From NCBI RefSeq assembly GCF_003018115.1, contig NZ_CP027457.1: a stretch of DNA of 64,000 nt; one strand, given 5' to 3'. Positions 42,503 through 43,157 of this stretch are shown here, piece after piece. Made by a program: the position numbers and the translations under genes. Numbering within the stretch: the stretch's first letter is position 1; each line of letters starts with the position of its first letter. The DNA comes from Escherichia coli (GTDB taxonomy: Bacteria; Pseudomonadota; Gammaproteobacteria; Enterobacterales; Enterobacteriaceae). The notes under the pieces were generated by a model. The model saw only the letters and a program-made list of their open reading frames with translations. It was not told where the DNA came from and did not search any database.

Positions 42503-42769
42503 ATGGACATTAACAACAAAGCCCGCATTCATTGGGCATGCCGCCGTGGTATGCGCGAACTCGATATTTCAATCATGCCGTTTTTCGAACATGAGTACGA
42601 CAGCTTAAGCGATGACGAAAAACGCATCTTTATTCGTCTGCTGGAATGTGACGATCCAGACCTGTTCAACTGGCTGATGAATCACGGTAAACCGGCCGAT
42701 GCAGAACTGGAAATGATGGTCCGACTCATCCAGACACGGAACCGGGAACGTGGTCCTGTGGCAATCTGA
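42503..42769 (+). CDS. sdhE: FAD assembly factor SdhE, also called CptB (88 aa)
   Basis: [35 protein letters not shown]. Confidence 0.9.
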
Positions 42770-43157
42770 TTTGCGCGTCTCCTGGCGCGCGCAGTGGCTT
42801 TCCTTGCTGATTCATGGGCTGGTTGCCGCTGTTATTTTACTCATGCCCTGGCCGCTCAGTTACACCCCGTTATGGATGGTGTTACTTTCGCTGGTGGTGT
42901 TTGATTGCGTTCGCAGCCAGCGGCGCATTAATGCTCGCCAGGGGGAAATTCGCCTGTTGATGGACGGGCGTTTGCGTTGGCAAGGGCAGGAGTGGAGCAT
43001 CGTCAAAGCGCCGTGGATGATTAAGAGCGGCATGATGCTGCGTTTACGTTCTGATAGCGGTAAACGGCAACATTTATGGCTGGCAGCCGACAGCATGGAC
43101 GAAGCCGAATGGCGGGATTTACGGCGGATTTTGTTGCAACAAGAGACGCAAAGATAA
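42750..43157 (+). CDS. ygfX: inner membrane protein YgfX/CptA (135 aa)
   Basis: Overlaps the sdhE 3-prime end by 20 nt; two predicted TM helices. Confidence 0.85.

Follow-up and report, generated by a model that had tools for sequence, protein, structure and literature searches.

A described relative of the locus examined here is the sdhEygfX operon of Serratia sp. ATCC 39006 (McNeil, Fineran), in which the two genes are reported to be co-transcribed, SdhE flavinylates SDH and FRD, and the membrane protein YgfX interacts with SdhE (PMC5042078). The operon also affects prodigiosin synthesis in that organism and is regulated by RsmA, RsmC and FlhDC. The function of SdhE has been defined structurally: in the FrdA-SdhE complex the FAD-ligand histidine of FrdA is hydrogen-bonded by the carbonyl of G16, and mutation of G16 reduces flavinylation (PMC5773532). 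SDHAF2/Sdh5, the flavinylation factor of mitochondrial complex II in eukaryotes, shares with SdhE the PF03937 domain and the RGxxE motif with its critical glycine (PMC5773532) but, unlike SdhE here, has no YgfX-like partner gene.

The same pair has also been listed in reviews, under the name cptBA, as a type IV toxin-antitoxin (TA) system whose toxin blocks the polymerization of FtsZ and MreB (PMC5086665, PMC8621075). As summarized in these two sources, Masuda et al. (2012) observed that overexpression of YgfX in E. coli led to a growth block and lemon-shaped cells, that YgfX interacts with FtsZ and MreB, and that co-expressed YgfY (SdhE) relieves the effect. A CptBA-like pair of Acinetobacter was reported as a TA system as well (PMC8132199). 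On the other hand, work in Serratia (as stated in PMC3985639) and in Shewanella (PMC8621075) did not reveal a TA phenotype. In the latter, both deletion and overexpression of ygfX were without phenotype and an interaction between YgfX and YgfY was undetected by two-hybrid analysis (PMC8621075), which conflicts with the SdhE-YgfX interaction observed in Serratia (PMC3985639, PMC5042078). The sequence-only reading had mentioned a TA-like system besides the flavinylation role of SdhE, and this matches the literature (PMC5086665, PMC8621075), with the caveat that the TA status is contested. The defining type IV system of E. coli is CbtA/CbeA (YeeV/YeeU); its toxin, like YgfX, has been reported to act on FtsZ and MreB, and the antitoxins of both systems are said not to neutralize the toxin via direct binding (PMC5086665, PMC3985639). 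The interaction that has been observed between SdhE and YgfX is contrary to this definition of a type IV system (PMC3985639).

The window analyzed here, a stretch of 64,000 nucleotides from Escherichia coli, carries at 42503-43157 the already known chromosomal sdhE-ygfX (cptB-cptA) operon, which is intact, near-identical to that of K-12 and has nothing strain-specific. Our overall reading, to which we give a probability of about 0.85, is that this is a vertically inherited housekeeping operon in which SdhE is the FAD assembly factor and YgfX more likely its membrane partner than a true toxin. The features of the locus are as follows.

42261-42502, plus strand: divergent intergenic region between ygfZ and sdhE, 242 nt; presumably contains the promoter of the operon and the ribosome-binding site of sdhE
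42503-42769, plus strand: sdhE (ygfY/cptB), ATG start, TGA stop, 88 aa; from the open reading frame (ORF) list and direct translation
42545-42559, plus strand: codons of the RGxxE motif (R15-G16-M17-R18-E19), SdhE residues 15-19; from a motif search
42750-43157, plus strand: ygfX (cptA), GTG start, TAA stop, 135 aa; from the ORF list and direct translation
42750-42769, plus strand: dual-coding overlap of sdhE and ygfX, 20 nt, encoding the SdhE tail G-P-V-A-I-stop and the YgfX start M-V-L-W-Q-S
42783-42935, plus strand: transmembrane helical hairpin of YgfX, helices 12-31 and 36-62; from hydropathy and the AlphaFold2 model
42936-43154, plus strand: C-terminal domain of YgfX, predicted to be cytoplasmic, residues about 63-135; six strands and a C-terminal helix, PH-like
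43056-43058, plus strand: codon AGC of Ser103, which is Gly103 in K-12 YgfX; no other residue differs
43161-43190, no strand assigned: inverted repeat (hairpin) in the 39 nt that separate ygfX from the convergent fldB; 12-nt arms, 83% complementary

Identities and coordinates of the two genes, which had been proposed from the letters alone, were confirmed by the ORF list, translation, Pfam, NCBIfam and alignment to K-12, and the proposed 20-nt overlap proved to be exact. The shared stretch reads GTGGTCCTGTGGCAATCTGA; the ygfX frame is +1 relative to that of sdhE, and a script verified that both ORF lengths are multiples of three. A TGA at 42714 closes the ygfX frame and no ATG, GTG or TTG occurs in frame between that stop and the GTG at 42750, so the overlap is independent of the choice of start codon. 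RefSeq annotates identical coding coordinates in a strain that shares 100% DNA identity with the window over 42400-43250. A later start at ATG 42843 (residue 32), which would abolish the overlap, was considered and rejected, because the Pfam match begins at residue 2, S11 is kept in 52 of 54 homologs and transmembrane helix 1 spans residues 12-31; residues 1-31 are conserved and lie within both the Pfam profile and the structural model. The overlap of sdhE and ygfX is real and no annotation choice.

Comparison with K-12 MG1655 (b2897 and b2896) revealed a common gene order, the same 20-nt overlap and GTG start, and the same neighbors, ygfZ on one side and fldB-xerD-dsbC-recJ on the other. At the DNA level the identity is about 98% over 936 nt; of the 17 nucleotide differences, five fall in the upstream intergenic region (5 of the 242 positions of the ygfZ-sdhE spacer) and two lie downstream of ygfX. 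The wider gene order (trhA, ygfZ, sdhE, ygfX, fldB, xerD, dsbC, recJ, prfB, lysS) is that of K-12 around 3.04 Mb, inverted, and in both genomes ygfZ and fldB are on the strand opposite to the pair. At the protein level SdhE is identical to K-12 at 88 of 88 positions (100%) and YgfX at 134 of 135 (99.3%), with neither a frameshift nor a premature stop, so that the earlier description of both genes as intact was upheld. Divergence at functional residues, which would have spoken against that description, was absent: the RGxxE motif is intact and all near-invariant positions of YgfX are kept.

Some other differences from K-12 and from ZF8-1, the most similar complete genome, were observed elsewhere in the window. 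The gene ygfF, which is about 1 kb long, codes for a putative oxidoreductase and lies between bglA and gcvP in K-12, is missing in the window (~38471-38566) and in ZF8-1; positions 15127-16123 of the K-12 locus (L001) are without counterpart in the window. ZF8-1 has a block (7460-10536 of its locus, L013; window ~7030-10100) between a yggC-like kinase gene and epd, comprising two ABC ATPase genes, the T and S components of an ECF transporter and a PPC-domain DNA-binding protein. This block is not known from K-12 and may be accessory. The left end of the window (761-1623 versus L013 1-2055) is not collinear with ZF8-1, the 3' end of tkt is only 94.8% identical, and the window lacks a match to a ZF8-1 gene for a 'prohibitin family protein' (L013 848-1756); a local replacement or an indel has occurred beside tkt. 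On the other side of the operon, prfB lies at ~47291-48389 on the plus strand, with its programmed +1 frameshift annotated.

SdhE matched the Pfam family Sdh5 (PF03937; 5e-26, 90.8 bits versus a cut-off of 27, residues 7-79), the NCBIfam equivalog NF008130 (198.4 bits versus a cut-off of 120) and the PDB chains 1x6i, 6c12 and 6b58 of E. coli YgfY/SdhE, two of which are complexes, with SdhA (6c12) and with FrdA (6b58). The maximum 19-residue Kyte-Doolittle mean was only 0.33, in line with the small soluble protein that had been proposed. On these grounds SdhE should be the FAD assembly factor, an activity established for the exact same sequence in K-12. From the 100% identity to the crystallized K-12 protein we infer that it would also bind SdhA and FrdA and support their covalent flavinylation.

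YgfX matched the Pfam family Cpta_toxin (PF07254, formerly DUF1434; 1e-49, 168.5 bits versus a cut-off of 27.3), residues 2-131 aligning with positions 1-132 of the 133 in the profile; searches of NCBIfam and PDB returned no sequence match. Its sole change from K-12 b2896, G103S, falls in the most variable column of an alignment of 54 homologs (S 11, A 10, G 7, Q 7, others), and Ser is also found at this position in Citrobacter; for these two reasons the change was judged likely to be neutral. The near-invariant residues S11, G65, W77, D114, W121 and R122, as well as the loop residue W34, are all present. The family is small: whole-library phmmer (E <= 1e-3) gave 135 clusters at 50% identity, and all members with a named source belonged to Enterobacterales. 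Weak matches to Pfam DUF2244 (E about 0.009) were seen in 3 of the 54 homologs. Eight predicted fusions of Sdh5 and Cpta_toxin domains (166-217 aa; P0003, P0004, P0006, P0007, P0009, P0012, P0013 and P0021), all from metagenome assemblies, were read as assembly or sequencing frameshifts. Nearly all of them are singleton clusters (P0003, P0004, P0007, P0012 and P0021 have at most two members) and the junctions differed in all five that were inspected (a 1-nt shift within the overlap, earlier frameshifts, internal deletions); a natural fusion or programmed frameshifting was rejected for these reasons.

Hydropathy analysis showed two hydrophobic segments in YgfX, at residues about 16-33 and 38-54, separated by an uncharged loop (P-W34-P-L-S-Y). 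Since five positive charges directly follow the second segment (RSQRRINAR) and none is present in the loop, the positive-inside rule suggests that both termini are cytoplasmic. An AlphaFold2 model built on the 54-sequence alignment (pLDDT 83.6) has a short strand (2-8), two helices (12-31 and 36-62), six strands (65-112) and a C-terminal helix (118-134), and the two hydrophobic stretches, modeled as these helices, agree with the two-TM membrane protein named in the sequence-only reading. Members of the PH-like superfamily are defined by a seven-stranded bent beta-sandwich with a C-terminal alpha-helix, compared with six strands and a C-terminal helix in the model. The overall architecture, with an N-terminal two-helix hairpin, a PH-like beta-sandwich and a C-terminal helix cap, presumably resembles that of bPH membrane proteins of the YdbS/YdbT type. 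Foldseek of the model against PDB gave no significant match and the bPH Pfam families had no sequence match to YgfX, and the PH-like label for the predicted cytoplasmic domain is therefore kept to the fold level, where we hold it with moderate confidence. No mention of YgfX together with pleckstrin was found in the open literature searched. In the 2013 work of McNeil, YgfX multimerization and SdhE binding reportedly required a tryptophan on the periplasmic side and an aspartate on the cytoplasmic side; we assume that these residues would map to W34 and D114 of the window protein.

At the boundaries of the operon, a candidate ribosome-binding site for sdhE (AGGAAG) is located 5-10 nt before the ATG, and a consensus sigma-70 scan of 42200-43300 found no promoter site. 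The inverted repeat between ygfX and fldB lies in a 76-nt fold of -25 kcal/mol (z = -3.3); the terminator scan did not call this hairpin, which is not followed by a T-run, and it is a possible bidirectional terminator or stabilizer of transcript ends. Two terminator-like matches inside ygfX were rejected as being at chance level (2 found versus 1.2 expected). Rfam and tRNA scans found nothing inside the sdhE-ygfX locus. Elsewhere in the window, Rfam detected 6S RNA (ssrS) at 28428-28611 on the minus strand (139.8 bits) and a short match to the ES036 sRNA at 14088-14130, also on the minus strand (40.0 bits versus a threshold of 37.6).

To what extent the arrangement of the two genes is maintained was examined in distant members of the YgfX family. 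Nine members with 22-40% identity led to ten loci, of which two (L006 and L007) are near-duplicates, leaving nine distinct ones. In eight of these nine, a PF03937 gene is immediately upstream of ygfX and overlaps it, by 14-29 nt: 14 nt in L011, 19 in L008, 20 in L003 and in L006/L007, 23 in L012, 26 in L010 and 29 in L004 and L005. It should be noted that the starts in these loci are predictions of a gene caller, so each overlap length is an approximation. L003 and L006 have an overlap near-identical in sequence to that of E. coli (GTGGTCCGGTGG..., GTGGTCCTGTGG...) though their YgfX proteins are only 29-39% identical; R-G-P-V at the end of SdhE and M-V-(L/R)-W at the beginning of YgfX are encoded by it. 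The exception, L009, is a Cpta_toxin member with a ketoacyl-synthase gene upstream and no sdhE. The K-12 neighbors of the pair are also kept in distant relatives. In a contig of the JGI metagenome 3300032157 (L004, 1-3447), sdhA, sdhB, a MAPEG-family gene, sdhE and ygfX follow each other on one strand, an order in which the pair is physically linked to the genes of succinate dehydrogenase. The MAPEG-family gene between sdhB and sdhE codes for a membrane protein, and the order MAPEG-sdhE-ygfX recurs in L005.

Because adjacency and overlap are kept at 22-40% YgfX identity, they would favor the co-production of two functionally linked proteins, and sdhE and ygfX are probably translationally coupled. 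The predicted energy of Shine-Dalgarno pairing (-4.3 kcal/mol) was the same for both genes and was reached by 17% of random positions; it is thus uninformative on coupling, and we make no claim of a weak ribosome-binding site for either gene. The open literature searched made no mention of the PH-like fold, of the depth to which the overlap is conserved or of the arrangement linked to sdhAB.

The distribution of the locus was analyzed by searching 851 nt (42400-43250) against 5426 complete E. coli genomes at >=95% identity. The region was present in 5425 of them, with a median of one copy per genome. Only 183 of the 5425 had at least 99% identity over the sdhE-ygfX stretch, and the window comes from a less commonly sequenced E. 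coli lineage. A tblastn search with YgfX against 72,556 plasmid records produced only 12 matches, six of them in records of 4-5 Mb and three in records of 0.69-0.79 Mb, which are chromosome-like sizes. A 51-kb 'plasmid' of Enterobacter hormaechei was inspected and is chromosomal DNA: it is non-mobilizable and carries bglA, ygfZ, sdhE, ygfX, fldB, xerD, dsbC, recJ, prfB and lysS. Of the two 'phage' matches of YgfX, one was a fragment of 1.5 kb without annotation and the other a Salmonella contig. The pair is effectively absent from real plasmids and phages, and neither SdhE nor YgfX matched the PADLOC defence models. With regard to the database itself, the six PLSDB records of 4-5 Mb and the 51-kb record are probably mislabeled or misassembled replicons (NZ_CP134663.1, NZ_CP141089.1, NZ_OL790696.1, CP125156.1, NZ_OL790811.1, NZ_OL790812.1 and NZ_CP114989.1).

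TA modules typically have a patchy and often multi-copy distribution and are associated with plasmids, prophages or islands, and sdhE-ygfX does not behave in this way. Being single copy, fixed in synteny and without true plasmid or phage copies, it is in its genomic behavior a core, vertically inherited housekeeping operon and no mobile TA module. The genes of CbtA/CbeA occur in cryptic prophages, as paralogs. Compared with that system, sdhE-ygfX is single-copy, core and syntenic, and its proposed toxin is membrane-bound with a predicted PH-like domain.

A better-established TA locus than sdhE-ygfX is present in another part of the window. Two full-length matches to Sib RNA (Rfam RF00113) were found at 27203-27353 and 27629-27779 on the minus strand (137.6 and 134.6 bits), 426 nt apart, between serA (25758-26990) and fau. 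The alignment with ZF8-1, in which one ibs gene (ibsC) is annotated, breaks at window 27380-27506 with a shift of 425 nt, or about one repeat unit. On the basis of this shift and the single annotated ibsC of ZF8-1, the window probably carries a tandem duplication of the sib/ibs type I TA unit.

One rival reading is that sdhE-ygfX is a genuine type IV TA system, in which membrane-bound YgfX would inhibit the polymerization of FtsZ and MreB and stop division, while SdhE would counteract this at the cytoskeleton, with release under some stress. The name of the Pfam family matched by YgfX, the tight two-gene layout with overlapping frames and the proposed antitoxin first, as in many TA loci, the Acinetobacter pair (PMC8132199), and the toxicity, morphological change and rescue by CptB in E. 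coli, as far as they are summarized in PMC5086665 and PMC8621075, all argue for it. Against it stand the core, single-copy and syntenic state of the locus in 5425 of 5426 genomes, its vertical conservation across Enterobacterales with one distant locus linked to sdhAB, and the essential absence of the pair from real plasmids and phages and from PADLOC matches. Single-deletion mutants of sdhE in E. coli are viable with ygfX intact, which also counts against it. Moreover, neither Serratia (PMC3985639) nor Shewanella (PMC8621075) showed the phenotype, and the supposed antitoxin has a well-established and structurally defined role in enzyme assembly (PMC5773532). We consider a true type IV system unlikely and the TA label weakly founded; the toxicity to which CptA owes its name is best explained by the overproduction of a membrane protein that forms multimers, with no true TA function.

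For the housekeeping reading, the following mechanism is proposed. SdhE would bind the flavoprotein subunits of complex II, SdhA and FrdA, and its RGxxE surface would position the FAD-ligand histidine so that the covalent flavin bond forms and the enzymes become active. YgfX, presumably translated from the GTG within the last 20 nt of sdhE, would be made together with it by coupling, and is predicted to sit in the inner membrane as a two-helix hairpin with the PH-like domain on the cytoplasmic face. The chances seem to us somewhat better than even that YgfX acts as a partner of SdhE anchored in the membrane, binding it at the site of complex II assembly and either keeping it there or regulating it. 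A more specific version, put forward only tentatively and with the odds leaning against it, is that YgfX is a dedicated membrane receptor or regulator of SdhE, with a PH-like domain to which SdhE would bind and by which it would be either tethered next to the SdhCD/FrdCD anchors or sequestered, gating flavinylation, while the 14-29 nt overlap would fix the SdhE:YgfX ratio via coupling. It could also be argued that YgfX and SdhE are functionally unrelated, their genes being merely packed in a compact operon and YgfX serving an unrelated membrane function, for example in the envelope or division. Short overlaps between adjacent bacterial genes are common and may be counted in favor of such packing, as may the family member beside a ketoacyl-synthase gene instead of sdhE (L009) and the Shewanella results, with neither a ygfX phenotype nor a detectable YgfY interaction (PMC8621075). 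However, adjacency and overlap were maintained in eight of nine distinct loci despite YgfX identities of 22-40% and a changed wider neighborhood, and an interaction of the two proteins was reported in Serratia (PMC5042078, PMC3985639). An unrelated YgfX thus appears very improbable to us.

Three observations offer handles on the function of YgfX as a possible membrane partner of SdhE: the predicted PH-like domain, the overlap that is kept across deep divergence, and the position next to sdhAB in a single lineage. A toxin label, on the other hand, is spread by TA catalogs and by the name 'Cpta_toxin' in Pfam for a pair that behaves in its genomic context like a housekeeping complex II assembly module.
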